Counted from the first letter of the whole stretch, positions 22,827 to 63,085 are shown. The stretch is DNA of 63,085 nt, filler included, from Craspedostauros australis (GCA_030167865.1; 5 parts of 5 records of this genome joined end to end with filler, not necessarily neighbours in it), one strand, 5' to 3'. Notes: generated from the sequence alone by a model not told the origin. Program-made: numbers and translations.

Positions 22827-22926
22827 NNNNNNNNNNNNNNNNNNNNNNNNNNNNNNNNNNNNNNNNNNNNTTAATTAATTAANNNNNNNNNNNNNNNNNN
22901 NNNNNNNNNNNNNNNNNNNNNNNNNN
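22827..22926. other. Artificial contig linker N44-TTAATTAATTAA-N44
   Basis: Exactly 100 nt; the core gives stops in all six frames; an identical unit occurs four times in the window. Confidence 0.97.
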
Positions 22927-25900
22927 TTCTTCAACAACGAAGTCTTCAGATCCGCCATACGCACGGGCTTCTTCAGGCAATCGTTCATGCCAATGTGACC
23001 CCAGTCGATGGATTGGATGCTCGCCGTCAGTCCCACGATCGGCAGATCACGTTCGCTCAATCCCCGTGTCCGGATCTCCTTCGTCGCATCGATGCCATCC
23101 ATCACGGGCATCTGCCAGTCCATCAGCACGATGTCGAACGGAGGTCTCTCCACGCCGCCATTGGCACCACTCGTACCATCGTTGGCGTCGGTGTTGGTGT
23201 TGTTGCCATCGAGCATGGCAATGTCATCCACATCGGTTGTTCCGAATGCCTGGGCGACAGCTTGCTCGCCATTCTCGACGATCGTCACAACATGGCCAAG
23301 TCTCTTGAGCATGTTGCGGATGACCTTCTGGTTGATCTTGTTGTCCTCCGCCACCAGGATTCGCAGCTCGTCTGTCTTGGGTTTCTTCGGAGCTGGAGCT
23401 TGAGTTGGAGCTGAAGGTTGAGGTCGTGCCTGTGGGTCTGCCGGTGGTCGTGACAAAGGTTGTGACAATGCCTGTGGTTGGTCACTCTTCACGATGACAC
23501 TATTGCTCACACCCTTCCTCGTTCCATTCCCATCTTCCCTGTCCCTATCCGTATCCCCACCTTGATCGTCATCACCGTCGTCATCGGTGTATCTTCTTGA
23601 TGCTGATCCTTGTTTCGGGACTTGTATGATCGTATGAGGATGACCAATCTGATCTGCGGATACGACCACATTCCGCACATCATGATCATCATCCAAATGG
23701 ACACCTTGAGATGGATCACGATCCGCACCATCCACATCATCCTGAGCAACAACAGCATCATCGTCACCATCGCCATTATCAATGACGTCGTCATGGATGG
23801 CATCATGGATGGCATCATGGATGACATCATCGAGACCATCCCCGACGACGCTTCCAACTGACATACCTGTTGCGGCACAACGAGTGTTCACATGCCGCTT
23901 GTATGGAATCTCGAACCAGAACGTGGTGCCCTCACCAGGCGCCGAATCCACACCGATCGCTCCTCCCATACCCTTCACCAACGACTTGCAGATCGCCAGT
24001 CCCAGACCTGTGCCACCAAAGTTGCGTGCCACAGATGCATCGGCTTGCTGGTAGGCATTGAAGATGCGTTCGCATTGATCAGGAGTCATTCCGATTCCTG
24101 TGTCGGTGACGCTGAATCGCAGCACGACCTGTTCCCTGTTGGTTTGTGGCATGGCCTTGACTCCGTTCTTGCTCTTCTTCTTGCCTGTCTTGGTGTTGTT
24201 CTTGGTATTCTTGGTGTTCTTGCTAGTCTTTGACTTCCTTGCCATTTGTGACTGAGATCGTGAGTGGGATGATGCGCTTTGTGTCCCACGGTTCTTCCTT
24301 CTCGATCTGGATCCAGATGGGGAACCAGATAGGGATCGACGGGGCGATCGTCTTCCTTTCTCACCATCGAGCGTCAATGATGCTTCGGCCGCACCTCCAT
24401 TGTCATCATTGGTTGTGGCATTGGCCTTGTCATCTACTGCACTTCCAGCCGTACCGCCGGCTGCACCAATGACCACACTGTTGTTTCCAGACATGGCATT
24501 GGCAACGGCAGCAGCAGTTGTGCTGTGGGCGGAGTTATCGTTCATGGCATCCCCATTCTTCGCCTCTGTGTTAACATGTGCATTCACATCTGTCATCACA
24601 TGAATCAGCCTCACGGACGTTGTCACACTCCCATTGCTCGTAAACTTGATGGCATTCGTCAACATGTTCAGCACGATCTGACGAAGACGGTTAGGATCAC
24701 CGAGCAGCTTCACTGGAATGCCACGTCCGATGTCACACTTCAGCTCGAGTCCTCTGTCTTCTGCCTGTGGAAGTACAGCGGCCACCGATCCATCGAGAAC
24801 ATTCCTCACCTCGAATGGGATCGTCTCGAGCTTCATCTTTCCGGCTTCGAGCTTTGTGAAGTCGAGCAGATCGTTGATGATGGCCATGAGTGCATTGGTG
24901 CTTGATTGCAGCATGGTGACGAAGTCTGTCTGTTCGATGTTGAGGGGTGTCGAGGCGAGAAGCTCGATGAATCCCACGACTTGGTGGAGTGGTGTGCGGA
25001 TCTCGTGTGCCATGACGGCGACTGTGTTGTATGACATTGTGTTGTATGACATTGTATTGTATTGTGTTTGCATTATGTTTGTGTCGTGTTGTATGGTGTA
25101 TGTAACGATGTGATGGAGATGGGAAATGGTGAGGAGTGAGTATGATGAAGCAGTGAGTATGGTGCTGTATGAGAATGTGTACATACAGACATGCACACAT
25201 GCACCAATACGCCAATACATCAATACCAACACCAGTATACATACACACACCAATGCAACAACGACGATGACAATGACAACAAACACGGCACAGCACGAAT
25301 GCAGCTACTCGTACACAGGGTACCATCCTCGCACTTGTCACATGACTCACAGAACTCGCTCTTCCTCATGTTCTGTCGATCTGCCTCATCCTTCGCAGCT
25401 TGCATGATGTCGGAGATGTCTCTGGCGCTGTAGATCATGACGGACTGTGATGTGACGGGATCCTTGACCTGTCTGATCTTGATGCTGAACCATTTGATGC
25501 CTTCGATGGTTTGAAGTTGTGCCTCTGAGCTGACATCGTGCTGTCCTTTTGAGTCGACCACTTCTTGCAGTATTTGCTGTCCCTTGTCGTGGTCGATGAA
25601 CTGAGCGACGAAGTCACACGGCTTCTCTTCTTTTTCTTCGTCCTCCTCCTCAGAGCTTTCGTCAATATCGCAGTAGTAGTCTTCATCTCCATCTTCGCTG
25701 GCAATGCCATCCGAGCGATCATTCGCGCCTGGGCCGTCAGGACCGTTGTTTTGGATCGTGTCTCCATGAACCTCGATGGCTGCGGTGCGGCAGCCGTGGC
25801 CACTGCTGCCATTCATGATGCGAGTGGCGTCTGATGTTTTGGGAATCCTGTGCGTTGGTGTATCGACAGTGTGTTCGACCGAACCGTCGTCCTGATCTTC

Positions 25901-38206: not shown

Positions 38207-38306
38207 NNNNNNNNNNNNNNNNNNNNNNNNNNNNNNNNNNNNNNNNNNNNTTAATTAATTAANNNNNNNNNNNNNNNNNNNNNNNNNNNNNNNNNNNNNN
38301 NNNNNN
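38207..38306. other. Artificial contig linker
   Basis: N44-TTAATTAATTAA-N44. Confidence 0.97.
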
Positions 38307-40866: not shown

Positions 40867-43800
40867 TCACTCCATTCTTGATCGTTTCGTCGGCTTGTCG
40901 CTGACAGTGCTGCGCCGCTGTCCATGCTGCTGCTCCTCGGCATGCTTCACCGTTGCTTCGCGGCTGCCAGCGTTGCTGCCGGCATCAACGCCAACGCCAA
41001 CCACAAGATCGCAGTCGTCGTCATCGTCACTTCGTCCTTCGCGGCTGGATCTTTCCAAGCGAGCGTAGCCAGCCGCTGCCATCTCGTCCTTTGTACCCGT
41101 TCCATCCTTCCCATGGTCATCAGCTCTGTCTTCGGCGGCGTTGCCACTGCTTCCGACGCCCGTTGACTGACATTGAGTGTGTGGTGTGCTCGCATCCGTT
41201 TCGCCACTGTCGCCATGGAGCTCTCTCACTGTCTGCCTGGTGCCTGGATACGAATCGCAGATGGCCTGCAACTCATCCAATCGAAGATGTAACGAAACTG
41301 GTTGTTCGCCATCATGCTTCCACTCTTCGTCTTCATCATCGTTTGCCACGAGTGTCTTCGATGCCGACTGAGACACGCTCATTCTGCTGATCGAGCTGTT
41401 GAGACGATCATCGACATTCTTCGCGCCATGCCCACCCAGCTCGAGCTTGCAGGACATGTATTCCGCAAAGCTTGAAAGGCACTCCACAAACCGCTCCCTC
41501 GGTAGATGAGGCTCGCTCAGCAGATCAACAACACGAAGCACTTTGCCATGTGTCATGGAGAATCCAGTCATCAGCATGGCACATCCCAAGGGCGGATCAT
41601 CGTGCGGAGCGATCGCCAGACACAGAAGTAACACGAACGTGGATGACGACCAAGGCTTGGACACAATCGTTGCATCTTTGTCGCTGGGTCCATCGCGGCT
41701 GTGGGTAGTGTCCAGTAGCAGATTCAGCATGGGTGTGGATGTGGATGCCAATGTGTCGGTGCCTTTCTCCGCATGCAGAGTCGTCTTTTTCGCTGCTGTT
41801 CCTGAAGCTGCATCTGCATCTGCGTTGGCACTGGTGGTCGTCTTTGCGCTGTTGCTTGCATCCTTTCTACCTGCGAGCTGCACTTGAATCCACCCGATGT
41901 CATCGACCGTGGCTTGCCGCAGTATCGTGCGCCCGACATCATTTTCAGTGATCTCGATCGGTCGTGACCTGCCTTCTTCGTCGTACTCGTTCAACAGCGC
42001 AAGGGCTGTGCCCACTTGACGCACGAGTTGCTTCTGACGACTCAGCACCCTGGCTTCCGACGTGTCGACGTTGGCAGTGCCAGTTCGCTTGTGCTGAGCC
42101 GTGCCGTTTGGTCGACAGGGAACATCGCTGTTCCGTGCGCATGCCACATCACTCTGCAACAATGGTGGATCTTGGAGAGGGTCATGAAGCGCGTACCCCA
42201 AATGAAGATGTTGCGCATCATTGTCCGCGTCGGTTCGAGAAGCATCACAGTGAGGCGAATGCGAGGAAGCAGACATCATCTTTTGGTGCGCTATCATTCT
42301 GCGCCTCACCTTTCGTTTTTGCGTCTTCCTGACTGCGAATTGTTCTGTGAGGAATGAAGTAGGAGACGGTAAATCGTGATAAGCAGCAGAGTGAGAAGAG
42401 GACAGAGATGGATCACCTCGTATGGGCACCTACACCATGGAACAGCACAGTACCATACACATGATTAATGCTCGATCTCGTCTTGGCAACGTCCAAACCC
42501 AGACAGACGATCAATACTCACCGCGCGCTGCTTCTGCTGCCCGTTTCACTTGTACCATCCCATTGCAATCAGGAAACAGCTTCGCCAACAGTTTCGCAGA
42601 CGCAATGTACCTTGCATCTCGTTTGCTCCCAGACGTTCCCACAGCCTCGAGAGTTTCCACTCGATCTTCGCTGTGGCTGCAGTCACAATCGCATTTGGCT
42701 TGATCCGTCACGGAGTCCGGCTTTTCGTCGTTTTGTGAGCAGGCGATGGCTTTTGCACTGTCACAAGTATCAACACTGCGTTCGGAATCTGCCCCAGCTC
42801 CAGCATCGATCTGCGTGGCATGATGATCGCATCGCCTTGGTGGATGATGCAAGACTAGATTTGCAACGCAAGTGAAGCTTACTTTGTGCAACACGACGAC
42901 TGGCTTTGTGGCAGATGATTGCATCGATGGCGATGACGATGACGATGGAGGTAGCGACACAGTCGATGTTACTGATGCAGTGCCGGACGTTGTTCTGGAT
43001 GTGCTGTATGAGAATGAAGGTGGAGTCCTGATTCTTTCGTCGATCTGAAACATGGCGTGGAGCAGCGTGCTGCAGGCCGACGCTCCTCTTGAAGCAAGAT
43101 AGGCGTCTTCGTCTTCCTCCTCGTCATCGTTGTCATTTATGTTGTGCTCATCGCTACCACAATCAACATGACGGTCCGTGTCAACGCCGCAACGTTGAAT
43201 TGAGGTGCCAGACACCTTGTCTCCGATGCTTTGTTTTGCGTCGTCTGCGACAGACAGTTGGTTGGACGATTCAATGATGGACTTGATCTGAGCATCGTCT
43301 CCATCTTGCGCGCGATGGGGCAAGGGGTTGGTCGTGCACACATCGCTGACGCCAAATGATTTCTGTCGTTTCTTGCAATGATCCTCATCCGCCGATGTGC
43401 CAATGTGCTTCAATCTACCGCGGAGAGCCTTTGCCGCGGCATTTCCTTTGTCAGCTTCTTCCAATTGGGGTCGCCCGATGGCCAATCGTTTGGCAAGGCT
43501 CGGTGCCAGCTCCTCCATTGGTTCCGTGGATCGGCTGAGCGGAGATCGCTTGCGTGCTAATTTCCCATCTTTGCTTGTTGGTATGGTCGCTGATGATGCC
43601 GTTGATGTTGTCGTAGTTGTTTGAATGGCAGTGGCAACACCGTCAATTGATGGCAATGCAATGACGACACCAGTTTCGCAGTCAAAGGCGATTCCAGGCT
43701 TGAGCGTCGTCAGCGCCCGTGCCGCAGCATCCTGACGAGCCGCTGCCTTGTTCCGGCCTCTTCCCTTGCCACACTCTCGTTCGTGGACGAAGACGGTGAA

Positions 43801-45099
43801 TTGGAAGTCGACATGCGACCCCCCTGCCGATACCAACCCTTTGACTCCTGATGCGAGTGATGCCACACCTGCGCTCCCACTTGCGCTTGCGTTTGCATTC
43901 AGGGTTGATTCTTCCCCTGCCTTCGCGCCATCTTGACTACCACTTGATGCCAGCTCCTCCAGTCTGAACGTTGGAGCGGTTTGTCGTTTCCCACACCATT
44001 CATGTAGCGCGGCCAGTGGCGTCTTTCCGATCAAGCTGTCGTCATTGGGAGGTGCACGCGCTTTCTTCTTCCTGGTGGATGCGTATCCCCACCTTCCGTT
44101 CCCATCATTCTCCGAGGATTGGCCAGACGATAGGTTGTATCGGAATGGTTTGCGTCGCCTTCGTCGGTTTCCACTGTCGTGGGCGCTGGCACCGTCCTTG
44201 TTACTGCTATTGGCCATGCCCGCATGCGCATTTGTGTTTTCATTGGAAGATGTGCACATAACGTCATCATCTCGAGCAGCAGGAGCAGAAGTAGACCCGG
44301 AAGCAGGGTCATGGTTCGCTGCAACGGTTGAGTGCTGGGGATGCACTTTCCGGCGACGCCTTCGCCCCTCTCTCCCATCCTTGGATTCCATGTCCATGCT
44401 CACACCGTCAACATCAGGGTCAGCATCGTTGCCATCTCTTGATCGAAGTTGATTCTGCTGATCCGCTCCCGACCTGTTCGCTGTGCCAGTGGCACTTCCC
44501 TCATTTGTGGGCCGACGATGGATGCTGCTGGAATCATGCGGCTTGAATGTTATCGCGTTCCGATGGTTAGTATGTGAGTAGGCAGCGGCCCGGTCTCGTT
44601 GGTGCCGTTTTCGTCTGTTGTGACGGTGAGTACCAGATTGCTGGCGATTACGAGGGCCGCTTGGGATGCGCTGAGCGTTGCTTTCGCCAGGTCCTTGTCC
44701 GAGTGGGCGTTGTTGTTGTTGCCGTTGCTGTTGTTGTTGCTGGTAGTGGTGATAATGGAGGTTCGTATCTTGACCGGCGTTGCTGCTGTTGGAGGGATGA
44801 GGAACAGCAACCTGCCCCTGGTGTGATGGAACAAAGGGAGAAAAAGAAGGAAATGGCTGATGGGGTGGTTGCTGATGGTGCGGATGTGAATGGAAATGAG
44901 GTTGGAATGGGTGAAATGGGGGTCCCTGGCTGAACGAAAAGTTCACCTGCGAAGTTGTGCCCATACCGAACCCCATTCCCAGCGAATGAGTAGCAACATG
45001 GGGGTGAACACCGAATGGATTGATTGGCGTTGCAGGCGACATCGGAACGGCCGGAGCATGAGCTTGCGCAAAGTGATGGGCATATGCATGGTTGTCACC

Positions 45100-45148
<49 letters not shown>

Positions 45149-46485
45149 GGATGATGAGGAAGATATACATCTCCCTGCATCATCGACGAATCCTGTGCCG
45201 TCGACCCATCGTCTTCCGCATCCTGCCCATCCTGCTCCATCCTTTCTGCCTCCTTATCTTCGCTGATGCCGCGTTCGGCGCCCTTGCTCTCCCCGTCATC
45301 ACGATGGCGTTCCACTCGTTCCGCTGATCTCAATCGCACCAGAAGCTCAACGTCCTTCAGCGGCGTGGATTTGCTCGTCAAATCCTCGAGCGTGTACTGC
45401 GCGTTGTCCCAAAGGTCGTAGTCTCCGCATGTGATGGATTCGATGCGGTCAGTGAAGTCTCTTGTATCTTCCGTGCCGTCATTCTGCGTTTCGCATCGTC
45501 TCTTTGGCTTGAGTTGATGGCCCAGCTCTACCATGGCTTCCTGCAATGACATGCGATCAGACAGCCGAACCTTCTTGAAGATCGTTTGTGTTTGCGCTGG
45601 TGTCTTTGCCCTTGTGCTGGCATCATCGTTGTCCCCGCAGGATCCATCATGGTCGATGTGTTGCGGCGAAGGCGTGATGACCTTGAAGTCATAAAAGGCG
45701 AAGTGATCGTATCCTGGCGCGGAAGTGGCATCTGGAGTTGGGTGTGTGCTCTGCAGTTGGAGGCCAGAGCCGCTGTGCGGCAATGAAAATGGATGTGCTT
45801 GCGTTGGATGATGATGGTGATTGGGATTCGGATTCTGCACAGTAAAAGCTCCGTGAGATAGAGGAGACGGAGTGACTGCTGCCGTTGCTACCGGAAAGGA
45901 TGGATGATGCTGGAAGGGTGACAGGGCATGGACGTTCCCAAAGACGGGAGAGAGCATCGTTGGGACAGGCGGAGCGGCGAACTGAGCGAATGCGTATGGT
46001 TGTCCAAATCCATTGACTGCGGCATGAGGCGAGAATGCGTGACCCGGCTGTTGTGGTGGATGTCGGTGCTGTTGGTAAGAGGGAGGATGCATGTTGATGT
46101 GCTGCATGTCAAGTGGTGACGGTGCCTCCATACGAAACGACTGGTCTGTCTCATCTCCGCCTTCTTCATCGCTGCTGTCATTGTCATTGTCTTTGCCATT
46201 GTCTTTGCCATTGTCATTGCCATTGTCATTGCCAATATTGCCGTGGTTGCTGTTGTTGGTCTCTGCGAGATTGCGATTGCGATTGTCATCCCCAACGTCA
46301 GAAGCATCGTCATTCAATCCATCTTGTTGTCGATTGTGGCTGTTGCTATTGCTTCTCTGTATTACTGTTGGTGCTCCCACTTGTGCTACCTGCTGCTGCT
46401 GCTGCTGCTGCTGCTGCGGTTGATGTTGGTGAGAACTGTCACCATCTGACACCACGAATTGATCGTTTCCCTCTGCTCTTTCCAT
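40867..46485 (-). CDS. Two-exon gene (46485-42522, 42344-40867; ~1813 aa): low-complexity N-terminus, two dsRNA-binding motifs, GNAT-like C-terminal region
   Basis: Donor G|GTGAGT at 42521; acceptor TCACAG| at 42345; the phase-1 join gives AAEAAR-E-QFAVRK. dsRBD1: KTPLAALHEWC...FTVFV...GKGRGRNKAAARQDAAARAL. dsRBD2: STLLHAM...PSFSY...FTCVA...AVGTSGSKRDARYIASAKLL. Confidence 0.8.
45101..45148. repeat. (TGC)16 trinucleotide repeat encoding polyQ on the minus strand
   Basis: Seen directly; lies inside the dsRBD gene. Confidence 0.95.
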
Positions 46486-48000: not shown

Positions 48001-48394
48001 GTGTTGATGGTCTGTGTCCTTTGTTTCGTCAATGACCGTGTTTTGTCAACAATCCTGCTTCGATGTCGGACAGCCTAATCTGATCCGCGACCAACACGAA
48101 CGCAATCTTCTTTCTCTTTCTTGTTCTTCGTTTTGTTGGATGTGAGTCGTGTTGAGAATGAAAAAGATGGAACGAAACCATTCACGAATTCAATCAACAA
48201 CGACGAACACTCCAACAAACGCATGAACGATGAGCGAAGATCCAGCACGACGCAACAACGGCGATGGCAACGCCATGGTCATGTGACGCCTCCTGTGTGT
48301 AGTGATCCCGTTGGTGCTGTGAGAAGATCAAACAGCGCAACCACGACAGTGGAGCTGTGCGCCCGAAGTGCAACTGGAGGCGAGCCCACAAGCG

Positions 48395-50458
48395 ATGCCA
48401 TCCGTCGATTCGCCTCTCGCCAGTTCTGCTGATCATGAACTGCTGGAGATTCTGAGCAACGAGATCCACAAGGATGGCGGAATTACCATGGCCACGGCCC
48501 TCAAGGATCACCTTGCGCGTCCAAGGCACGTTGACAGACTGCTGGTGCAAAGCATCGGGTCGAAGGGGTTGCTGACGTTCTGCCGAAGGTACCCTGCCAT
48601 CTTTCGTGTGGATACCAGCACCAACATGCATCTCGTCCACTTGATTCAGAACAGTTACGTCACCCTCTTCTACGCTGCACGCAAAAGCCCTATCGCGGTC
48701 GCGCACGAGGACAATGGCAGCAGCGAAGAGAGCAACAACGACACTCACAGCAACGTTGAGAAACAGCATCTGCTCGTTTGGGACAATGAAAGATACCACG
48801 ACAGCCAAGACAAGCTGTTGCAGTATGTCAGCATCGTGATGCGCAGGCGACAAGCCAAACTGATAAGGCGGCAGAAGAACCAAGGGCATCAACGCAGCAA
48901 CGGCCGGCCAGAATGCAGCCTTGATTGGTTGATCCGACAATGCAAAACGCCGGCCCACGCATGGCTGCGCGAAACCAACTTTTACGTCAAGCATTATGGG
49001 AGTTTCAATCTGCCAGCAGATCGAGCATCATCTGACGGTGCAATCAACGTGCGTGAACATTCACATCAGCCAAGCAACAGCGACTGCAGCAGTAAGCATG
49101 AAGGCCTCCACACCAGCGATGGCCAGCAAGAGCCGCGCAAGCAAGCGTACTGTCCGGTCGGATCCACGCAATGGGCAAAGGCAGTGTTGCCAGCTGTGAA
49201 GCGACTGCTGCAACAACACGCTCAAGAGCGATACGATATCATCGACGAGAGGAACCAGATCTGCATATCAGCAATGGCAGCGACCGTGAGAGCAACCACA
49301 GCAGCAGTTGCAGATGTAACATCCGAAGTGTGGGCAGAAGAGGAGGCGAAACGAGCTGCTGCCGTCATCATGGAGTGTCTGCGCCAGGATGGTGGAACGC
49401 AAATGAAGCTCTCCCTTCTCATCCATCGGTACTCGTCCGTGAAAGAATGCCTTGGCGGCCGGGACTTCAGCGGCCTCGTCAAGGCCTTTCCAGTTTTGTT
49501 TGATGGGTTGGCAATGAAGCAGATTGCAAGCGGTGATGTGGAGCTGCGCATGAAGGATCATCCCACAATCAACATGCGCAATGCCGTCCCAAAGAACGAC
49601 AAAGATAGCACATGCAGTGGCAGCATCTCGCAGGTCGGAACTTCTCACCAGCCTCCTGGCCACAGCAGGATGGCGGTAGATCATCAAGGCTTGTATTCTG
49701 TGACAGCATCGAAGTGGTCGACAGCCATAGCGAACATCATGGTGTGGAGCTGCACATCTCCACAATCTCCATTCCACAGCGGTGGCGGCAGCAGTAACGG
49801 CAGCGGTTGCGGGAAGTATGGAAAGGATGAATGCGACGAACCCCACCTACACCCTACTGTGGTCAACCAAAGAACTCCATGCAACGATGTTGTGGCGGTC
49901 GATCTCACAGCATCTGTCGGTGGCATGACTCTTGGATTGGCCAAAACAAACTATTTCCAGCAGGTCATCGCCATCGAGATCGATCCGATCCGCGCCGAAC
50001 TCTGTCAGCACAACATGACAAAGCATGGCTTCAGCGCCAGATCAGCGGTGGATGTGAGGAACATGGACGCCATGAGCGCTCTACCTGTGTTGGCAGACGA
50101 ACGCACACATGGCAAACACGACCAGAGTATGATCCTTGTGATGGATCCACCGTGGGGCGGCATCGATTACAAGCAGGAGGACGAGGTGCATTCCACGATA
50201 CGAATGGGGCGGTGGAGCTTGAATGAGGTGATCGCGAAGTGCTTTTATCACTTGACACCGGCCATTCTGGGACTGCGGCTTCCTGTGACGTTCGTCGTGA
50301 AGGACTGGATGGAATCGCTGCGGAAGGAGTTTGGTATCACACCTGTTGTGATGACAGTACGCAAGCTGGGTCCTCAGCTGTTCGTCGTCATTACCCTCGG
50401 CAAAGGAGATGGAGAAGTGGATGGAGGAGCTGATGTCACCTTCACTGACGTTGTTTGA
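48395..50458 (+). CDS. TGS1-like RNA cap guanine-N2 methyltransferase (Methyltransf_15-like) with a long N-terminal extension
   Basis: GLYSVT, SAM-binding VDLTASVGG, VIAIEID...LCQHNM, MDAM and signature MDPPWGGIDY. First ATG at 48395. Confidence 0.82.
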   Translation: MPSVDSPLASSADHELLEILSNEIHKDGGITMATALKDHLARPRHVDRLLVQSIGSKGLLTFCRRYPAIFRVDTSTNMHLVHLIQNSYVTLFYAARKSPIAVAHEDNGSSEESNNDTHSNVEKQHLLVWDNERYHDSQDKLLQYVSIVMRRRQAKLIRRQKNQGHQRSNGRPECSLDWLIRQCKTPAHAWLRETNFYVKHYGSFNLPADRASSDGAINVREHSHQPSNSDCSSKHEGLHTSDGQQEPRKQAYCPVGSTQWAKAVLPAVKRLLQQHAQERYDIIDERNQICISAMAATVRATTAAVADVTSEVWAEEEAKRAAAVIMECLRQDGGTQMKLSLLIHRYSSVKECLGGRDFSGLVKAFPVLFDGLAMKQIASGDVELRMKDHPTINMRNAVPKNDKDSTCSGSISQVGTSHQPPGHSRMAVDHQGLYSVTASKWSTAIANIMVWSCTSPQSPFHSGGGSSNGSGCGKYGKDECDEPHLHPTVVNQRTPCNDVVAVDLTASVGGMTLGLAKTNYFQQVIAIEIDPIRAELCQHNMTKHGFSARSAVDVRNMDAMSALPVLADERTHGKHDQSMILVMDPPWGGIDYKQEDEVHSTIRMGRWSLNEVIAKCFYHLTPAILGLRLPVTFVVKDWMESLRKEFGITPVVMTVRKLGPQLFVVITLGKGDGEVDGGADVTFTDVV

Positions 50459-53973: not shown

Positions 53974-54073
53974 NNNNNNNNNNNNNNNNNNNNNNNNNNN
54001 NNNNNNNNNNNNNNNNNTTAATTAATTAANNNNNNNNNNNNNNNNNNNNNNNNNNNNNNNNNNNNNNNNNNNN
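53974..54073. other. Artificial contig linker
   Basis: N44-TTAATTAATTAA-N44. Confidence 0.97.
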
Positions 54074-54124: not shown

Positions 54125-57100
54125 TCATGCTTCCTCATCTGATGATCCGTCATACATTGACAGCGGTTGCTTCGTGCCGGGCGGTTGGATGTCGCTGACC
54201 ATCTTCCACGGGCTATGCTCCATCAATGCCGCATCCTGCGTCGCTGCTCCCTTCCTCATGAGTGCGAAGGACATTTGGTGCATCACACCATCCACGTAGC
54301 ACTTACCCAGCGACAGCGTTGAGAACACACCGTAATGACCAGTGATGATACCCTCGTCCACCACAGCTCCATCAGCAAATGTCACCAGCGGAGCTTCGTA
54401 GATGCGAAAACCGAAGTACAGCATCTTTCCTTGGATAGTCGCCCCTCTGAATTGCAGCAGAGCGTTCATCATTGGTGTGCCCCAAAGAATGGATTCGAAG
54501 GACCATTCCTCGAAGAAGAAGCCGTAGGACATGTACGCCGAGTACAGCGAAACGGACCATGGCTCTCCACGTTGGACGCCTCCGATAAGCGAGATAACCT
54601 CGATCACACGAAGGAGAACGAGCCAGACGATGGCCTGGACGACAATGGACACAACGACGATGACGGGGGCCGCGGCCAGTGGTGCTTCTGTTTTCATCAT
54701 GATTGACATCAGCTCATATGACGGGATGAGGCTCGCCGCCACTATCACCACCATGATGGCATGCGCCAGCGTGTTGTTGACGGTCATGAGTGCCAATCTC
54801 CACGTGGGGAGAGGCACGTTGCTTGGATGGTGGTCCTCGTTGATCATATCACTCGTGACGTGCGTACTCGGCAACACCAACGATCTGTCGATGGTCACGC
54901 CAGGGCCGCATGTCAGCGCCATGCCAACGCTGCTATCCGTGACCTTGGTTCTCTTGTACTGACCGCCCTCCTCGACATCGAAGTCGCAAAAGGAGATGAA
55001 GGATCGTCGGACCGTGATCAGATCCAGCTTCGATGGAGGGAAGGTAGTCACTCCCGCCCTCGATCTCATGTCGATATCCATGCCGTGTGCCATCAGGACG
55101 AGGTTCCACAGTTGCGAGTAGAATGTCAGGTCGAGGAGCAACATTGTTCCGACGAAGAAGTGGAAGTTGCATGCCCAGTCGGCGAACTTGGAGAACGTTC
55201 CTGTTCGTGCTGCACCCGGCCGTTTCTTGCCGATCAGCACCCACTTGAGGATGACGCTGGTGATCACGAAGAAGATGGACGTCAGGCCAAAGAGCGCGAT
55301 CCTGTAGATGATAGGGGAGTATCTCCATTCCGGAAGCTTATTCCCGACCAACTGATCGGCAGCCACGAAGCAACTGAAGGCGAAGTACAGCTCGATGGCG
55401 AGCCACATGACTTTCATCATTCCCAACACGGTCGATGAACCGGTGGATGTAGCGGATGTCATGTCCTCACTCGCTGTTTCGATTGCGGATTCTTCATCGC
55501 CATCTGGGAGGGCTGCCGAAGGAGCATCGACGAATGCTGGGTTGCCCTTGATTGTGGTGTTCGGGGGTGCCTGAGCGCCTTCCACCAGCACCGACACGCG
55601 CTGTACCTGGCAGCCGGAGCCGATGCTAGTTCCAGGGAGCAAGGCGCCATCGACTGTGGCGTCTGATCCAACCTGAATCTTGCGGAACTTCACGCTGGGA
55701 CCTTGCTGCTCATTTCTCCATGGGCCGAACACACGGCATCGGATGTTCATGTTGATCGTGGCGTTTGCACCAATCTTCACCAAATCGAACTCTCGGATGG
55801 TCCCGTTCACGCTGGCTGACCTGTGGATGTTGGCACCCATCAGGTAGTAGAACATCATCATCAAAGGCGTGCCGGCGATGATGCAGCCAACGAAGCGTTC
55901 CCATACATGCACCAACCGATCGACGAACCACCATCTGATGAAGTAAATATTGGTCTGATTGGCGTATCCTTCTGCGTATCTGCCAATGACGATCCACTTC
56001 GAGAGGACGATCGCGGAGGTGAACGCAATGGCCCAGACTGGAACGATCAAAGGGAACAGCACCCACTCAAGACCGGGGAGGACGTTGGAGTCGGCGATGG
56101 CCTTTCCAACTTCATACGCTGGGATGATGGGGAGCGCGAAGATGACGAGCATGATGAACGCGCCGATGGCTTGGGTGATGGCGACGGCGGCTTGAGAGAG
56201 TGGCTTCTCGTTGGGGAAAGTCACAAGCCTCTTGAGGGTTGGGAGGTTGGTTGGTAGAGGCAGCCCCGTTGATGCCTCAAGGAAGGCTCTTAGATCCACA
56301 ACTTTTGGAAACAGTTGGAAGACGTTTGAAGGGAGGACTTTGTTGTATCGTTGAGAGAGGGACTGGCGGAGCTCCAACTCCATCATGGAGGACAGTCCAA
56401 CATCCTTCCATTCATCGTCGGGGTGGACGCCTGATCTCGTGACGTTCTCGATGATCTCATGGAAGTCCATGTCGTTGATGTTCCAGTCTTCCATCGCGGA
56501 CTTCCTCAACGATAGGTGCGAGGATTGAGCTGCCGTGCCAACATCGTGCGCGCTGAAAAAGTGCGATGTCCCGGCCACATCTAGCACTATCTTCTGCGTT
56601 CCATCATGAAGGCGCTGGCGGTTGTGGCGTCTCTGGATCTTGCCGCTTGTTGTTTTGGAGATGGTCCGTTCCTCCACAGCGACGACTGATGCCGGTGTCA
56701 ACCCGATCTGGTCAACGACGGCCTTCTTGATCTGTTGGCAGATGCTTTCGACGTCATCTGTATCTGCTGAACGGATCTCAAACACGATCTCCAACTGCCC
56801 ATCGTTGTCGGTGTCGTCGGATGAAAAAGCAGCGATGCAGCCTGGACGGACAGCAGATGATGCATCTTCCACAGCTTGTTCGATGTCTTGCGGGTAGTAG
56901 TTGACACCATTGACGATTATGATGTCCTTCTTGCGGCCGCAGATGTAGAGATAATCGTCTTGGTAGAATCCGTAGTCACCTGTTCGCAAGTATACCTTGC
57001 TATCGGCATCTGCATCGGATGGTGTGGTCTCCTGCAGTCTGCCTTGGAATGTTTCGGCAGTGAGCTGTGGCTGATTGTAGTATCCAGCGGCAACGGATGC

Positions 57101-58693
57101 TCCCGCGATCCAGATCTCTCCCGTGACGTTGTCAGAGACCTGCGAGCAGGTGTCCGGGTCCACAATGATGATGTCTACCAAACTGTGCAGATTGCTGCGT
57201 TGGGCGATGGCCACAAATGGGTGGAGATCTTCATCTGGTCGGACGGTCGACAGATGGAATCCAAAATTGAAGCTTGCTCCAACCACGTTCTCGGCCAGAC
57301 CGTATCCAGCCATGAACCAGTCCTCGCACAACCCGTGCGGGCAGAAGGCCTTCGAGAATGATTCGTTCGTATCAAGCCGGATTGGCTCCGCGGCATTTTG
57401 CAGCTCGAATATACTTGAGAGATCAAGGTTGGGGATGGGATTGGACTTGCCATGTTTTGCTCGTGTCTTCGCCTCGTTGAACTTGCGGACGACCAGTCGA
57501 AACGCGAAGTCGGGGGCGGCGCTGAAATGGCACTTGTGCTGTGACATGAGATCGACCCAGAGCAATGGGTTGCGGATGAAGGAAACCGGCGAAATCATGT
57601 GGACTCTCGAACTCGATGCCAGTGGCGCAATCACCATTTGGATGAGGCCCATGTCATGATACTGCGGCAGCCATGAAAATGTGGAGAACCGCTCCGGAAG
57701 TTGCTTGCCGCTTGTACCCTTGTCGAAGCAAGTGAGCCAACTGCTGTGCAGCAGCTCGATGTTGGCCCTCACTGCGTCATATGTCACCATCACACCCTTC
57801 GGGTTGCCGGTGCTTCCAGACGTGTACTGAAGGAAAGCCAGATCCGAGCCTTGGATGTTCGGCTCATCAAAGGAAGGTGGTGGCGACGACGAGCGGCCAG
57901 ACAGGAGGCTGGACAGGAATCCTTTCTTTGCCTGCTTGGGGCCGGCCTTGCTCTTGCCGCTTCTCCTGTCGACCAAGAACGGATCATGATGGATGACGCG
58001 ATCGGTCACTTGGTACTTCACCCCGCTTGGCCACATGGATCGGCTCTTGGATGCCGGATTTGCGCGATCGGCGAGACGCAGCAGGTTGATGGTCGTCTGG
58101 GTGAGAATGACTGCCGGGGAGCAATCCTCGATCACCTTGTTCATCTTCGCGAGTGACTTGACGAGCGGTGGTCCTGGAGGATAGACCAACACAGCAGTCA
58201 CGCCTGCGCGGAGGCATCCCAGAAAGATGGCGAAGAAGTGCAGTCCGAAGTCGTAGCAGAGCACGACGCGATCGCCTTTCTTGACGTCCCACTTGTTGCG
58301 GAGGAGATGGGCGCATTGTCCCGCTTCATCCCAGAGCTGCTGGAAGGTGTAGTTGTTGATTGCCTTTCCCTTGTCGTTGTACCAAGTGGAGAAGACGGTG
58401 TCGGACTTGAGTTCGACGATGAACTTGAGATGGTCGATGAAAGAGTTATCCTTGATGGACTGTTGGATGATTTCGTGCTCAGTGGCGTTGGTGTTAGCGG
58501 TAGGGCTGGCTGTGCGGTTAGCTGCGGCGTTGCTGGTGCCGGTCTCGATGTCATCGACAGCGGCGTCGTTGTTTTGGTGTTTGGAATGGTTGGCCTTTGC
58601 TGGTGGCGCACTCATGGGGATGGCGTTGCCGACAACGTCGATGGTGGCGGCGCTTCGGACGCCGGAGGAATGAGTTGAGGTAGTCACGTCCAT
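54125..58693 (-). CDS. NRPS-like protein: fatty acyl-AMP ligase (FAAL) + carrier protein + Pls/PosA-type terminal region (three TM-pair/left-handed beta-helix modules)
   Basis: FAAL motifs AFLQYTSGSTGNPKGV, SWLPQYHDMGLI, SAAPDFAF, NAAEPI, GYGLAENVV, YLRTGD, GRKKDIIIVNGVNYYPQDIE and KTTSGKIQR. Carrier motif DVGLSSM (~56390). Terminal motifs KWIVIGRY, RWWFVDRL, GTPL...MGANI, DLVKIG, IKGNPA, KWVLIGKKRPG and WGTPM...RGATI...ITGH. Intronless; ATG at 58693. Confidence 0.88.
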   Translation of the reverse strand: MDVTTSTHSSGVRSAATIDVVGNAIPMSAPPAKANHSKHQNNDAAVDDIETGTSNAAANRTASPTANTNATEHEIIQQSIKDNSFIDHLKFIVELKSDTVFSTWYNDKGKAINNYTFQQLWDEAGQCAHLLRNKWDVKKGDRVVLCYDFGLHFFAIFLGCLRAGVTAVLVYPPGPPLVKSLAKMNKVIEDCSPAVILTQTTINLLRLADRANPASKSRSMWPSGVKYQVTDRVIHHDPFLVDRRSGKSKAGPKQAKKGFLSSLLSGRSSSPPPSFDEPNIQGSDLAFLQYTSGSTGNPKGVMVTYDAVRANIELLHSSWLTCFDKGTSGKQLPERFSTFSWLPQYHDMGLIQMVIAPLASSSRVHMISPVSFIRNPLLWVDLMSQHKCHFSAAPDFAFRLVVRKFNEAKTRAKHGKSNPIPNLDLSSIFELQNAAEPIRLDTNESFSKAFCPHGLCEDWFMAGYGLAENVVGASFNFGFHLSTVRPDEDLHPFVAIAQRSNLHSLVDIIIVDPDTCSQVSDNVTGEIWIAGASVAAGYYNQPQLTAETFQGRLQETTPSDADADSKVYLRTGDYGFYQDDYLYICGRKKDIIIVNGVNYYPQDIEQAVEDASSAVRPGCIAAFSSDDTDNDGQLEIVFEIRSADTDDVESICQQIKKAVVDQIGLTPASVVAVEERTISKTTSGKIQRRHNRQRLHDGTQKIVLDVAGTSHFFSAHDVGTAAQSSHLSLRKSAMEDWNINDMDFHEIIENVTRSGVHPDDEWKDVGLSSMMELELRQSLSQRYNKVLPSNVFQLFPKVVDLRAFLEASTGLPLPTNLPTLKRLVTFPNEKPLSQAAVAITQAIGAFIMLVIFALPIIPAYEVGKAIADSNVLPGLEWVLFPLIVPVWAIAFTSAIVLSKWIVIGRYAEGYANQTNIYFIRWWFVDRLVHVWERFVGCIIAGTPLMMMFYYLMGANIHRSASVNGTIREFDLVKIGANATINMNIRCRVFGPWRNEQQGPSVKFRKIQVGSDATVDGALLPGTSIGSGCQVQRVSVLVEGAQAPPNTTIKGNPAFVDAPSAALPDGDEESAIETASEDMTSATSTGSSTVLGMMKVMWLAIELYFAFSCFVAADQLVGNKLPEWRYSPIIYRIALFGLTSIFFVITSVILKWVLIGKKRPGAARTGTFSKFADWACNFHFFVGTMLLLDLTFYSQLWNLVLMAHGMDIDMRSRAGVTTFPPSKLDLITVRRSFISFCDFDVEEGGQYKRTKVTDSSVGMALTCGPGVTIDRSLVLPSTHVTSDMINEDHHPSNVPLPTWRLALMTVNNTLAHAIMVVIVAASLIPSYELMSIMMKTEAPLAAAPVIVVVSIVVQAIVWLVLLRVIEVISLIGGVQRGEPWSVSLYSAYMSYGFFFEEWSFESILWGTPMMNALLQFRGATIQGKMLYFGFRIYEAPLVTFADGAVVDEGIITGHYGVFSTLSLGKCYVDGVMHQMSFALMRKGAATQDAALMEHSPWKMVSDIQPPGTKQPLSMYDGSSDEEA

Positions 58694-60115: not shown

Positions 60116-60215
60116 NNNNNNNNNNNNNNNNNNNNNNNNNNNNNNNNNNNNNNNNNNNNTTAATTAATTAANNNNNNNNNNNNNNNNNNNNNNNNNNNNN
60201 NNNNNNNNNNNNNNN
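60116..60215. other. Artificial contig linker
   Basis: N44-TTAATTAATTAA-N44. Confidence 0.97.
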
Positions 60216-60234
60216 CATATGTAACCGTACTCAC

Positions 60235-63085
60235 CTCCACCTTGAAGACGCCACGCTTCCTTGCCAGCTTATCGAAGGCGTTGTAAATGCCCTCCAACAG
60301 AATGAACACCTGCGTCGGTTCTCGCACGGATGACCAAGCAGTGAAGCCAACGATGTCCGCAAACAAGACCGAGGCGTTCAGGAACAGATCCGCAATTGGT
60401 TTGCTGTTCTGGTGCATCGATGAGGCTGGGATAATAGACGCCATGGACAGCTTCCGACTCATCGATGCCTCCGTCACAGAGTGGCTGTGTTGACTGTATC
60501 CGCCGTCCAATCCCATTCCTGCGCTGCGTTGAGGGCTCGCCCCAACAAAGCTGGTTTGATGGCCGTCGCCGTTGTGCCCGCTGCTTGGAGAAAAGGGTCC
60601 CAACGAGTGCTGCGATTTCATGACTGTGACGGGACCGCAAGATGCCGCAGAATCCGACGCCCGATTCGCCATGCGGAACGCGTCCTTGTTCTTGTCGTAC
60701 CTTCCAAGCAGCTCGGTGACAGGGTTCTTGGCTCGGTTCAGATTCGCTTGCTTCTGCTCCTCCTCTTCTCGTGCTGCAGCATCTTCCATCAGCCGGTCCT
60801 GCACGTTCCGGGGGAACAGCGAGCTGACGATGGCGGTGGATCTCGTGGCTGTCGTCATGACCTTGTCCTGCCGGCGTTTCACGGTGCAGTCGTAGATGAC
60901 GAAGACAAGCGCCGTGATGGAGAGGCCTATGATCACACCGACAGTGTAGATGATGGGCTTGTCGGTGATATATGTGCTATGGAACTCCGAGGTTGGGTAC
61001 ATGTAGAGAGAGTTCTGGCAGTCGCTTCCTTCGAATGGGGAGAATGTGGTCTTAACCTCGTACGCATCCCATTCAGTGTCATGGAAGTCGCCGTTGCCCA
61101 GGTAGGACACATCGGGACCCGTGATGAGGAACGTGTACTCGACACCGCAGTTGCTGCGAATGACGATGTAAATCGGGTCGATGTCCTCCGGCAGGAGGTT
61201 CACGAAGTAGTTGTGCCACGGCAACAAAGAAATGACCGTCGCGACGATGGTTCTGTTCTCTGCGCTGGGCTTCTGGACCCGGTTGCGGTTGTTGAGGCTG
61301 CCGAGGGCCGTCGTCGCTTCTGTGCTGGCAGGATAGTCGAGGTCCTTCCGCAGAGTGGCGAAGACTGGGCTGAGGATGTAACTTTCCGGTGGCAAGAAGT
61401 TTCCACCTCTAGGCACTTGCAGGATCTCGGACAACACTGGACGTCCACTTCGGACGATGCGATCAAAGTTCTCAGGTATGCCCCGCAGCGTGAACGTATC
61501 GTGGTTCACGATGACGTCGTTCCCTACGACGGGCGCAACTTGCCAGAAGGGTGCGAACTTGCCTTTGGATATCGGCGATGATGCTCCAGTGACACCCTCG
61601 ACGGGACGAGGAGGGGTGAAGTTTGTCCAGATGAAGGGAAATATGGGAGGGGCCGTGCCATCATCCCCACCTCCCAGCACCCAGTCGGGAGGACCGCCAG
61701 TGCTGCCACCAGCGTCGCTGCTGTTGCTCCCATTGTTGACGAATGCTGGTGGTCCATTGGTGGTGCTCGTGGTGGAGACGTCGCTGGTATTCTCCCCAGT
61801 GACAAATGCCGGTGGGCCACTTCCCTGCGCAACGCCAGGAGGCGGCCCTGCACCTGTATTCGTTCCTCCGACACCCGGAGGTGGCCCTGCGCCTGCATCT
61901 ATTCCTCCGGCACCAGGCGGCGGCCCTCCGCCCGTTCCTCCCACACCAGGTGGTGGACCACCAGCTGACGTGCTAGGTATGAAGGGAAGCCCCATGTGCT
62001 TGTAACTTTCTGCTCTCCAAACTTCATTCTGCTGCATGACGTACCCCAGCCACTCGCCCTGCTGGGCTTCCGGGACGAGCGGGGCGACGCCTATCGATCG
62101 GGAGCCCGTCGCTTGGATGGCACGCTCCGCCAATGCCTCAAACAGAGGGACAGTGACCAACGGCCAGGTCGAATTCGTTTGGATGGCATGTGCGGTGAGC
62201 GATGTACTGAATTCCTCCAATGTACCCACGATGTGCTCCCCATTCAATTCGTACACGGTGATGATTTGATTTGCAAAGTCGGTGAACTAGAGAGACATGT
62301 TGCATCCGCGTTTGCATTCATAGTTGCAGGTTGGTTTGGCGTGCGTAGCAGAGTTCGAGTTGGTGCACAAACAAGGGGAGAATGGAACCGCCGCATGGGC
62401 GTAGGTGGAGCCGTATGGTATGTACGGCAGAGCACGTGGGAAGAGGAAGGATGAGATCGGGAAGGATGGTTAGAGATGAGATGCCAACGATGATGATCAC
62501 CACCATGGTGGAAAGCCAGCCACATGCATTGCCTCCTCTTGGTGGAATCTCATGTGGGCAATTGCAGATCAACCACTCCAGAACCGTACTCGTACTTGTA
62601 CTTGTACTCGTACTTGTACTCGTGCTTCTGTGTCAATGTGGGACCGGCATTCCGTAAAACCGGATACGATAGTTTCATGCATACAATCTTCCATACGCTC
62701 CAACAAAAAGCACGTACTCTGGTGACGAGATCATCTTCCTGTTGCTGTGATGTGAAGAAGTATGTGATGGTCGCGAATGCAGCCATGGTGAGCAGCAGGA
62801 CCATCACCAGCAGCATCTTGGAGCACGTCACGAGACGTTCCTCCTCCGCCGCGAGTGTGGAGGTGCTCATTGGCCGCGCCTTGTTGTCGATGCTGCTGGA
62901 CGGTACCGAGGCATCGTCATCTTCCATCACAGACGACGCGGATTCATCATCGTTGTGTGGGTTTGGCAGCCGTACGGCACTATTGTAGGTATGGCCATGG
63001 AAGGATTGGATCGATGTGGCTGGGGAATGGGTTGTTTCCGTGGGGCCCGAGTTGCCGCACGCGGCTTCATCGACTGTTGACGCAA
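60235..63085 (-). CDS. Receptor-type class III adenylate/guanylate cyclase (TM - extracellular CHASE-like - TM - cyclase), partial at both ends; exons >63085-62718 and 62286-60235
   Basis: Intron GTACGT...TAG (62717-62287) gives EDDLVTR|FTDFANQII. Motifs WPLVTVPLFE, PFWQVAP, YLGNGDFHD, TM2, IVSSLFP, KPIADLF...VLFADIVGFTAWSSVREP.QVF.LLE.IY.AFD and VFKVE, followed by donor GTGAGT at 60234. The frame is open to the window end. Confidence 0.9.
62586..62623. repeat. Hexamer tandem repeat GTACT(C/T) x6 inside the cyclase intron
   Basis: GTACTC GTACTT GTACTT GTACTC GTACTT GTACTC GT. Confidence 0.9.

Follow-up and report, generated by a model that had tools for sequence, protein, structure and literature searches.

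The stretch of DNA considered here (the window) comprises 63,085 nucleotides of the genome of Craspedostauros australis (GCA_030167865.1), of which five parts are joined end to end with filler. Its minus strand contains an open reading frame (ORF) of 1522 codons that starts with an ATG at 58693 and ends with a stop codon at 54125–54127. The predicted protein opens with an adenylation (A) domain of the fatty acyl-AMP ligase (FAAL) type, continues with a carrier domain, and ends in three modules, each made of a transmembrane (TM) helix hairpin and a β-helix. The order of these parts is that of Pls, which makes ε-poly-L-lysine in Streptomyces albulus, and of PosA, which makes δ-poly-L-ornithine in Acinetobacter baumannii. 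An earlier note, written from the sequence alone, had read the locus as one intronless frame with FAAL-type and carrier motifs and three TM-pair plus β-helix modules. The span it gave is exact, the frame is uninterrupted, and the motifs it named are all present. The agreement of domains and motifs within the ORF is far beyond chance.

The homologues retrieved by sequence search are collinear with the ORF across 92–99% of its length, and thus there is no sign of an internal intron. The open frame extends 5′ to 58834, and there is no ATG between 58693 and 58834. The position of the true start codon is uncertain, the first ~95 residues being of low complexity and unconserved. Pfam and Protein Data Bank (PDB) matches begin at about residues 98–112, and the first hydrophobic segment in a Kyte–Doolittle plot is found only from residue 142 on.

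The Adenylation Domain

Pfam divides the A domain into an AMP-binding N-terminal subdomain and a C-terminal subdomain of the AMP-dom_DIP2-like family, PF23024, the latter matched above the family cutoff (33.7 bits versus 27). The N-terminal subdomain carries the motifs YTSGSTGNPKG (residues 290–300), WLPQYHDMGLI (341–351), and YGLAEN (464–469). LRTGDYG (569–575) and CGRKKD (585–590) lie at or just ahead of the start of the C-terminal subdomain, which itself contains NYYPQDIE (598–605) and the catalytic-lysine motif TTSGKIQR (681–688). The segments that we take to be the adenylation core motifs, namely the P-loop, YGxAE, TGD, GRxKD, and the catalytic Lys, are all intact. A low-complexity insert rich in Ser, Lys, and Pro (residues ~235–285, ~57839–57991) interrupts the N-terminal subdomain, and the hidden Markov model (HMM) matches are split into two stretches that flank it.

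The best matches of the domain are to FAALs, both among profiles and among known structures. Nine of the ten top NCBIfam models are FAAL families or FAAL-containing synthetases, with E values from 1.4e-88 to 1e-51. The best is NF004509 (E 1.4e-88, 297.7 bits), followed by models of the FadD32, FadD21, FadD28, and MbtM types. Models of ordinary long-chain acyl-CoA ligases get no further than ~1e-36, and neither does TIGR01733, the model for amino-acid adenylation, whose score of 124.8 bits falls far short of the 317.4 bits at which it accepts such a domain. The best PDB matches by sequence are the FAAL structures 7r7f, 3kxw, FadD32, FadD23, FadD28, and 3pbk (E 2e-76 to 2e-42); the alignments to 7r7f, 3kxw, and 5ey9 cover the whole A domain, which is ~30–40% identical to bacterial FAALs. 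In the ORF, 173 residues separate the P-loop and YGxAE; the spacing is 152–185 in other FAAL-type proteins and 133 in two Pls-type proteins, but a third Pls-type protein, with 161, falls within the FAAL range, and the spacing does not tell the two types apart. Against most of the Pls A domains tested, the A domain of the ORF scores below 50 bits. FAAL models and FAAL structures thus rank above both acyl-CoA ligases and amino-acid A domains, and the profile and structure matches identify the domain as FAAL type, as the earlier note had held.

The Carrier Domain

The carrier contains the sequence GLSSMM (residues 766–771, window 56381–56398), which lies inside the interval of ~56270–56460 where a carrier had been placed before. 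Its S769 is the predicted attachment site for phosphopantetheine, and the corresponding column is at least 90% Ser across a 50-row alignment of ORF homologues. The motif is G-(L/M/I)-(S/T)-S among FAAL-type proteins and G-G-H-S among those of the Pls type, the serines falling in the same column, and hhalign pairs the carrier region of ORF-type proteins with the Pls carrier. The carrier with a conserved serine is therefore upheld.

Homology of the C-Terminal Region to the Pls/PosA Terminal Domain

TIGR02353, the profile of the Pls/PosA terminal domain, is the sole specific NCBIfam match of the C-terminal region. The score is 75.8 bits (E 2.4e-21) with the whole protein and 79.3 bits (E 2.1e-22) with residues 802–1522 alone, both below the cutoff of 423.1, whereas true members scanned in parallel score 486–686 bits. 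When residues 815–1522 were used as a phmmer query against 1.84 billion cluster representatives, 1062 proteins were matched at E ≤ 1e-3, 483 at ≤ 1e-10, and 102 at ≤ 1e-30. Besides FAAL-fused forms, the last group contains fragments and a small number of proteins of the amino-acid type. Eighteen of the listed matches were rescanned with NCBIfam: 12 have a FAAL family as the best match, 1 has no match at E ≤ 1e-60, and 5 are genuine members of the Pls/PosA family, which score 510–686 bits with TIGR02353 and exceed the TIGR01733 cutoff. The phmmer E values to these five verified proteins range from 1e-26 to 1e-30.

A comparison of alignments extends the relationship to the whole region. With 13 FAAL-type C-terminal rows set against 12 Pls-type rows, three of which are bacterial loci found in this analysis, hhalign gives a probability of 100 and E 4.2e-53 over 746 columns, reaching from the carrier through the end of module 3. 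Judged by these alignments, the C-terminal region has diverged from the Pls/PosA terminal domain but is homologous to it over all three modules. The A–carrier–(TM–β-helix)×3 layout ascribed earlier to the ORF is accordingly shared with Pls and PosA, on the strength of the 746 columns, the hydropathy, and the structure model described below. The label of a TIGR02353-type terminal domain holds as far as homology over all modules goes; at 76–79 bits versus 423, the region is no curated member of that family.

Module 1 of the ORF matches all three modules of the Pls-type proteins and is thus the least diverged. Module-versus-module BLAST within the ORF is marginal, with E 0.005 for module 1 with 2 and for 1 with 3, and no significant match of 2 with 3; the case for a threefold repeat is therefore made by the structure model and by the Pls-type modules.

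Modules and Predicted Structure

Kyte–Doolittle hydropathy gives three pairs of hydrophobic helices, at residues 831–867/871–904, 1088–1116/1125–1157, and 1300–1333/1330–1374, and one further hydrophobic segment at 934–953. In module 1, the most Pls-like, a TM hairpin (~834–868/875–902) precedes β-helix 1 (~972–1058), and the motifs SKWIVIGRY (898–906), IRWWFVDR (919–926), and REFDLV (967–972) are found. Module 2 has its hairpin at ~1084–1119/1126–1154 and β-helix 2 at ~1226–1284, with the motifs LKWVLIGKK (1149–1157) and GMDIDM (1204–1209) and an invariant D1224. In module 3, a hairpin at ~1297–1334/1339–1368 is followed by β-helix 3 (~1424–1500), which bears the conserved D1446 and H1453. 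Pfam hexapeptide matches are weak and confined to residues 1000–1048.

An AlphaFold2 model of the 708-residue C-terminal region, calculated with the 50-row homologue alignment, has a mean pLDDT of 89.9 and a pTM of 0.91. Confidence is low only at both ends and in a linker (model residues 249–268). The model consists of three repeats of a long helical hairpin, two helices, and a β-helix, with a short additional strand in module 1. Foldseek returned 56 PDB matches at E ≤ 1e-3, and all 30 of those listed are hexapeptide acyltransferases or designs based on them. VIA-align superimposes maltose O-acetyltransferase with Z 12.0 and a root-mean-square deviation of 3.0 Å over 152 of 186 residues. The Z of 12.0 for the maltose and galactoside O-acetyltransferases refers to model residues 87–250, and amino-sugar N-acyltransferases align with Z 9–10, mostly on module 1. 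The C-terminal region alone, compared with the PDB by sequence, gave weak β-helix matches, with E values no better than 0.009, among which there was no terminal domain of the Pls/PosA type, and no chain named as a Pls/PosA synthetase is present among the PDB matches listed from either the sequence search or Foldseek.

In the model, the C-terminal region is thus built of three repeats of a TM hairpin and a left-handed β-helix, with six membrane helices. The three TM-pair plus β-helix modules proposed earlier agree with the hydropathy, which supplies the helix pairs, and with AlphaFold2 and Foldseek, which supply the β-helices. The C-terminus, then, resembles both TIGR02353 and left-handed β-helix proteins. 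Since every membrane insertion is a hairpin, the soluble parts would all lie on one side of the membrane.

Conserved Residues and His1453

Residues were compared in a MAFFT alignment in which 5 Pls-type rows were set beside 92 from the FAAL-type clade. K899, W900, W922, D970, L971, K1150, D1224, and H1453 are conserved in at least 93% of the 92 clade rows and in at least three of the five Pls rows. The positions in common with Pls include K899, W900, G904, W922, G953, D970, and L971 in module 1; K1150, W1151, G1155, G1204, and D1224 in module 2; and G1405, G1417, and H1453 in module 3.

H1453 is at least 90% conserved in both the 50-row homologue alignment and the 13-row FAAL-type alignment. 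It aligns with H1257 of the Pls-type protein P0255, near-invariant in 12 Pls-type rows within the motif QTHLFEDR; in the five Pls-type rows of the larger alignment the column reads ‘HHPHH’. No other histidine is conserved across the FAAL-fused clade as well as the Pls/PosA proteins, and H1453 is thus the natural candidate for a general base.

Other conserved residues belong to the clade itself and differ in Pls: D925/R926, W931/E932, R967/E968, R987, F989, and D1446. R987 and F989 lie in a C-R-x-F insertion of β-helix 1 found in the FAAL-type clade. The pattern of these residues suggests an acceptor different from that of Pls.

Family and Distribution

The closest homologue is a metagenome protein, P0003, with 45% identity. 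Next come more than 10 Seminavis robusta proteins, mostly labelled ‘Putative fatty-acid--CoA ligase FadD21’, followed by two Chaetoceros tenuissimus proteins and proteins of Ectocarpus. Exact look-ups of 20 further proteins gave organism names for 7: three from the choanoflagellate Salpingoeca kvevrii, one from Picozoa, one cluster with Aureoumbra lagunensis, and two from Chrysophaeum taylorii. All the organism-named FAAL-fused members are eukaryotic, from diatoms, brown algae, pelagophytes, Picozoa, and one choanoflagellate; the description of the layout as algal was hence too narrow. In the ESM Atlas, the cluster nearest to the C-terminal region is 94% Eukaryota, with Bacillariophyta the commonest group.

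The two architectures separate in a tree of the terminal domain (FastTree, 105 rows, local support, unrooted). One branch with support 100 splits 15 rows from 90. The smaller side has 12 proteins with amino-acid A domains and 3 that lack the N-terminal part, and none with a FAAL; the larger side has 74 with a FAAL and 16 that lack the N-terminal part. The split being unmixed, FAAL and amino-acid architectures are each confined to one side. By this tree, the FAAL-fused clade is sister to the amino-acid-type Pls/PosA proteins, and its named members are mostly ochrophytes.

The A-domain tree (72 rows) has no outgroup, the Pls-type A domains having fallen below the length filter, and its deep nodes are weak (support 91). 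The FAALs of diatoms, brown algae, and pelagophytes form one group (30 of 31 rows, support 91) that encloses a clade of 24 rows at support 99. The choanoflagellate sequences and some others are nearer to a 29-row clade (support 99) that is made up of the FAAL domains of other multi-domain synthases, the named ones being bacterial. The FAAL domain of P0046, a FAAL-polyketide synthase of Seminavis robusta labelled ‘deoxyerythronolide-B synthase EryA1’ in the database, nests in the A-domain clade of the FAAL-Pls-like proteins, a position that suggests domain shuffling within diatoms.

Several relatives carry extra domains. P0009, P0032, P0150, and P0265 have a flavin adenine dinucleotide (FAD)/amine-oxidase-like domain between the FAAL and the carrier, P0009 having in addition a C-terminal α/β-hydrolase. 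P0201 runs FAAL-carrier-ketosynthase-carrier and then the Pls-like terminal domain. Because variants with ketosynthase or oxidoreductase domains share the same terminal domain, their architecture suggests that this domain is the off-loading step for several short types of assembly line.

A distant third group, P0135–P0141, combines a generic AMP-binding domain and AMP-binding_C (PF13193) with a carrier and three hexapeptide modules. Its members match module 1 of the ORF at 44–56 bits only. At least one of them, P0139, is from a diatom, Cylindrotheca fusiformis, and diatoms may thus also have non-FAAL Pls-like enzymes.

Prokaryotic Relatives and the Question of Origin

The scans of prokaryotes were limited by pattern or sampled, so that a null result means not found in the genomes searched. 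With the C-terminal region of the ORF as the query and one genome per species (185,579 prokaryotic species), 7 pattern matches were obtained and none was confirmed. The pattern [YF][LIV][RCQ]WW[FW][VI]DR, used on prokaryote genomes with the 13-row FAAL-type alignment, gave 15 matches, of which 3 loci (L001–L003) were confirmed. Their ORFs, of 1339, 1515, and 1326 residues, are all of the amino-acid type, with TIGR02353 above its cutoff. Module 1 of these three bears an RWWFVDR-like motif, which is otherwise typical of the eukaryotic FAAL-fused clade. A FAAL-type profile run against 401 Myxococcota genomes matched 7 at E ≤ 1e-8: two (G002 and G142) to the membrane/β-helix part, four to the carrier or linker only, and one that is a 259-residue β-helix ORF.

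No FAAL-fused form was found in the prokaryotes scanned, that is, 185,579 species by pattern and 401 Myxococcota genomes by profile, with the A-domain type of the G142 match unchecked. The ancient horizontal acquisition put forward in the earlier note does not find support here: no such prokaryotic form turned up, the base composition is like that of the neighbours, and the trees are unrooted. Neither the donor nor the direction of a transfer can be read from the A-domain tree.

Coordinates and Genomic Setting

Table 1. Coordinates of the ORF and its parts (window positions) and of three bacterial synthetases (positions in L001–L003).
Feature	Residues	Coordinates	Strand	Basis or description
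Whole ORF, 1522 codons and stop	1–1522	54125..58693	-	FAAL, carrier, then three TM-hairpin/β-helix modules
N-terminal segment	1–94	58411..58693	-	Low complexity, unconserved, no signal-peptide-like hydrophobic segment
A domain, N-terminal subdomain	112–539	57077..58360	-	Pfam PF00501 (AMP-binding), E 1.2e-56
A domain, C-terminal subdomain	589–690	56624..56929	-	PF23024 (AMP-dom_DIP2-like), E 4e-8
Carrier (phosphopantetheine-binding) domain	752–804	56282..56440	-	PF00550, E 0.002
Predicted attachment serine (GLSS), codon	769	56387-56389	-	Alignment
Module 1	830–1062	55508..56206	-	Hydropathy, model secondary structure, TIGR02353 match
Module 2	1084–1290	54824..55444	-	Hydropathy, model, conserved columns
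Module 3	1297–1500	54194..54805	-	Hydropathy, model, conserved columns
His1453 codon, candidate general base	1453	54335..54337	-	Conservation
Bacterial Pls/PosA-type synthetase, Proteobacteria metagenome-assembled genome (MAG)		L001 4009-8028		Pattern scan
Bacterial Pls/PosA-type synthetase, Myxococcales MAG		L002 3361-7908		Pattern scan
Bacterial Pls/PosA-type synthetase, Fimbriimonadaceae MAG		L003 3979-7959		Pattern scan

The G+C content of the gene is 0.51–0.55, inside the window range of 0.48–0.58. The other long ORFs of the window with Pfam matches are of eukaryotic type: a TPR protein, an AAA_16 ATPase, a hybrid histidine kinase, a double-stranded RNA (dsRNA)-binding protein, a cap guanine-N2 methyltransferase-like protein, and a guanylate-cyclase fragment. 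No biosynthetic cluster or partner gene was found among the window's other long ORFs in the Pfam scan.

The histidine kinase (22875–25286, minus strand) has HisKA, HATPase_c, and receiver domains, and the named proteins that match it best are from pennate diatoms (Cylindrotheca, Seminavis, Amphora, and a ‘Synedr…’ record), with bacterial sensor kinases scoring close behind. Together with the ESM Atlas cluster, these relatives mark the window as nuclear DNA of a diatom. The AAA_16 ATPase is encoded in a single frame of 1507 residues at 3610–8133 (plus), the dsRNA-binding-motif protein in one of 1324 residues at 42511–46485 (minus), the methyltransferase-like protein at 48368–50458 (plus), and the guanylate-cyclase fragment at 60160–62256 (minus). 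A further single-frame ORF at 8470–12180 (minus, 1236 residues) has a weak match to a GH2 TIM barrel, and several more, of 500–875 residues, have no Pfam match. Pairs of 44-N runs with 12 bases between them occur at 22827–22926, 38207–38306, 53974–54073, and 60116–60215; such pairs sit ~50 bases downstream of the stop of the ORF and ~1.4 kb upstream of its start, and they resemble masked sequence.

Proposed Activity and Alternatives

We propose that the protein is an enzyme anchored in the membrane, in which one polypeptide chain activates an acyl group, carries it, and passes it on. The FAAL-type domain would adenylate a fatty or other aliphatic carboxylic acid, a step well supported by homology, and the acid would be loaded as a thioester on the phosphopantetheine arm at S769 and not on coenzyme A (CoA). 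An acceptor nucleophile, either an amine or a hydroxyl, would then attack the acyl-carrier thioester at a pseudo-trimeric C-terminal region, as suggested by Pls/PosA and the hexapeptide acyltransferases, with His1453 of β-helix 3 as the likely general base. More speculatively, the N- or O-acylated product would be released into or across the membrane. That the FAAL loads its own carrier, and that the β-helix domain passes the chain on to an amine or hydroxyl by way of His1453, is in our judgement rather probable. Since an ordinary fatty acid brings no nucleophile with it, we consider one transfer to a separate acceptor more likely than iterative polymerization.

Several observations weigh against this proposal. 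All the NCBIfam FAAL scores lie below the curated cutoffs (for example, 297.7 versus 775 bits), and hence the A domain, for all its FAAL character, is outside any named bacterial orthologue group; the models are mostly mycobacterial or bacterial, and their cutoffs are curated for whole proteins. The stretch after YGLAE, where we take the FAAL-specific insertion to be located, aligns with 7r7f and is ~14 residues shorter. The carrier match, at 18.8 bits, is slightly below the Pfam cutoff of 20.8. The TIGR02353 match covers only profile positions 43–362 of 695, modules 2 and 3 being too diverged. The pseudo-trimeric packing, with His1453 at an interface, would follow by analogy from the published PosA model and from general knowledge of the fold. 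Finally, we know of no FAAL-fused protein to which a substrate, an acceptor, or a product has been assigned.

The earlier note had allowed for polymerization as well as for acyl transfer at the membrane. The FAAL, the carrier, and the terminal domain are consistent with either, and nothing points to the bifunctional substrate that polymerization needs. A polymerase would join an ω- or β-hydroxy or amino fatty acid iteratively and extrude a polyester or polyamide at the membrane. It would account for a terminal domain that is homologous at full length to known iterative polymerases, for the retention of the candidate catalytic His of the Pls-type enzymes, and for the conservation of six membrane helices as in enzymes that export their polymer (PMC10522769). 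The residues peculiar to the clade speak for a different acceptor, however, and the variants with ketosynthase or FAD-oxidoreductase domains resemble assembly lines with a single off-loading step. We know of no such polymer in diatoms, and consider a polymerase unlikely. FAAL-carrier didomains are commonly loading modules, and the C-terminal region might instead be a non-catalytic anchor or scaffold, the FAAL and carrier feeding a separate enzyme, either a polyketide or peptide synthase or a lipid acyltransferase. The nearest A domains from outside the family are in multi-domain proteins, mostly with condensation domains by Pfam, and the nesting of P0046 among the A domains of the family fits the same idea. 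Yet some 700 residues are conserved from diatoms, pelagophytes, and brown algae to Picozoa and a choanoflagellate, with invariant polar residues and the Pls His among them; an anchor would not require three conserved β-helices, and no synthase gene lies nearby within the window. A loading role of this kind seems to us doubtful.

Two other explanations fare much worse. An ordinary Pls/PosA-type synthetase, making a cationic homopoly(amino acid) from a diamino acid, would have the same overall domain order and would explain why TIGR02353 is the only specific NCBIfam match of the C-terminal region. The A domain speaks plainly against it, by the low TIGR01733 score set beside FAAL scores of up to 297.7 bits and by its distance from most Pls A domains, as do the TIGR02353 score far below the cutoff and the fully supported branch that parts the two architectures; such an enzyme is very improbable. 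That the ORF is a non-functional relic, a mis-assembly, or a contaminating sequence might be suspected from the N stretches on both sides of the gene. The 4.6-kb frame is intact, though, with every catalytic motif, its G+C content is like that of the neighbouring DNA, its neighbours are of eukaryotic type with the histidine kinase nearest to pennate diatoms, and its own closest homologues are diatom proteins. We give this explanation hardly any credence.

It is tempting to go beyond acyl transfer and to imagine a eukaryotic family of membrane-integrated synthases in which fatty-acid activation is coupled to the vectorial synthesis of an undescribed class of products, a conjecture that we regard as improbable as matters stand. 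By analogy with polylysine export, hydroxy or amino fatty acids might be joined into a polyester or polyamide that leaves through the base of six helices; or the products might be N-acyl amines, built on amino acids or polyamines, serving as signals or surface lipids. If this were true, the expansion of paralogues in Seminavis, a benthic diatom, would represent a diversification of such products.

Comparison with Known Systems

According to the FAALPred study (PMC12820801), FAALs are more numerous in diatoms than in any other eukaryotes, at 2.9 per genome and 16 in Seminavis, and a FAAL-polyketide synthase is mentioned for Bacillariophyta. Neither ‘Pls’ nor ‘hexapeptide’ occurs in the main text of that study, and the supplementary files examined contain no mention of the Pls/PosA terminal domain or of hexapeptide repeats, although its figures and other files might show diatom domain architectures. 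No paper describing a fusion of a FAAL with a Pls-like terminal domain was found in the literature searched. The FAAL-carrier unit fused to a Pls-like membrane β-helix transferase is hence a variant new to that literature, assembled from parts already known. In a large conserved clade, a FAAL takes the place of the amino-acid A domain, and the same catalytic platform would be used for lipid chemistry in ecologically dominant algae. In diatoms, pelagophytes, and brown algae, the clade is a candidate source of acylated metabolites or polymers still to be discovered, and its recognition corrects the database label ‘fatty-acid--CoA ligase FadD21’.

The bacterial FAALs, namely FadD32, FadD28, FadD23, the Legionella protein of 3kxw, and loading domains such as that of 7r7f, provide the best HMM and PDB matches and share the PF23024 subdomain. 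As in FAAL loading modules, the carrier of the ORF follows the FAAL in cis. Unlike these proteins, the FAAL of the ORF is fused to a membrane transferase and not to condensation or ketosynthase domains, and it has the insert at ~235–285. In EcFAAL (3pbk), Patil et al. 2021 (PMC8460268) describe a CoA-rejecting helix (T252–R258) and a blocked CoA pocket, and name the residues F279, W224, and M231. DIP2 and CPS1 are eukaryotic proteins with FAAL-like domains and the same PF23024 subdomain (PMC8460268). DIP2 differs from the ORF in having a DMAP1-binding domain and two tandem FAAL-like domains, with neither a carrier nor a membrane β-helix.

Hexapeptide acyltransferases, including the maltose and galactoside O-acetyltransferases, serine acetyltransferase, AntD, WlbB, PerB, and QdtC, have the same fold as the C-terminal modules (Foldseek E 4e-5 to 8e-4, VIA-align Z 9–12, identity 13–19%). 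They work as trimers with active sites between subunits, whereas the β-helices of the ORF are non-identical, covalently linked, mounted on six membrane helices, and accompanied by a fused carrier. A functional analogy is offered by LpxA and LpxD, which are β-helix trimers with acyl carrier protein as the acyl donor.

To our knowledge, Pls-type enzymes are the only known non-ribosomal synthetases in which a membrane-embedded β-helix domain, instead of a condensation domain, forms the amides, and the characterized members all polymerize diamino acids. As described in a survey of the family (PMC10522769), six membrane helices in three pairs are placed between three soluble tandem domains, and in the PosA model, six bent membrane helices lie below three left-handed β-helices that are packed like a sugar-nucleotide acyltransferase trimer. 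The same source, drawing on Yamanaka et al. 2008, names the carrier-bound aminoacyl thioester as the donor and a free amine as the acceptor. Homologues were surveyed there in bacteria, fungi, Amoebozoa, Metazoa, and Alveolata, and the word ‘fatty’ does not occur in that survey.

The ORF has in common with Pls and PosA the order of A domain, carrier, and ~700-residue terminal domain, the three membrane-helix pairs and three β-helix domains, and a homology that runs from the carrier to module 3, including the motifs KW..(I/L)GR, RWWF, and FDL and the His of module 3. It differs from them in its FAAL-type A domain, in a terminal domain that falls across a fully supported branch and far below the TIGR02353 cutoff, in the residues and the β-helix 1 insertion (R987, F989) of its own clade, and in the exclusively eukaryotic origin of the named members. 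Its product is probably no cationic isopeptide. The FAAL-fused clade thus offers a natural comparison for learning how the Pls terminal domain selects its acceptor.

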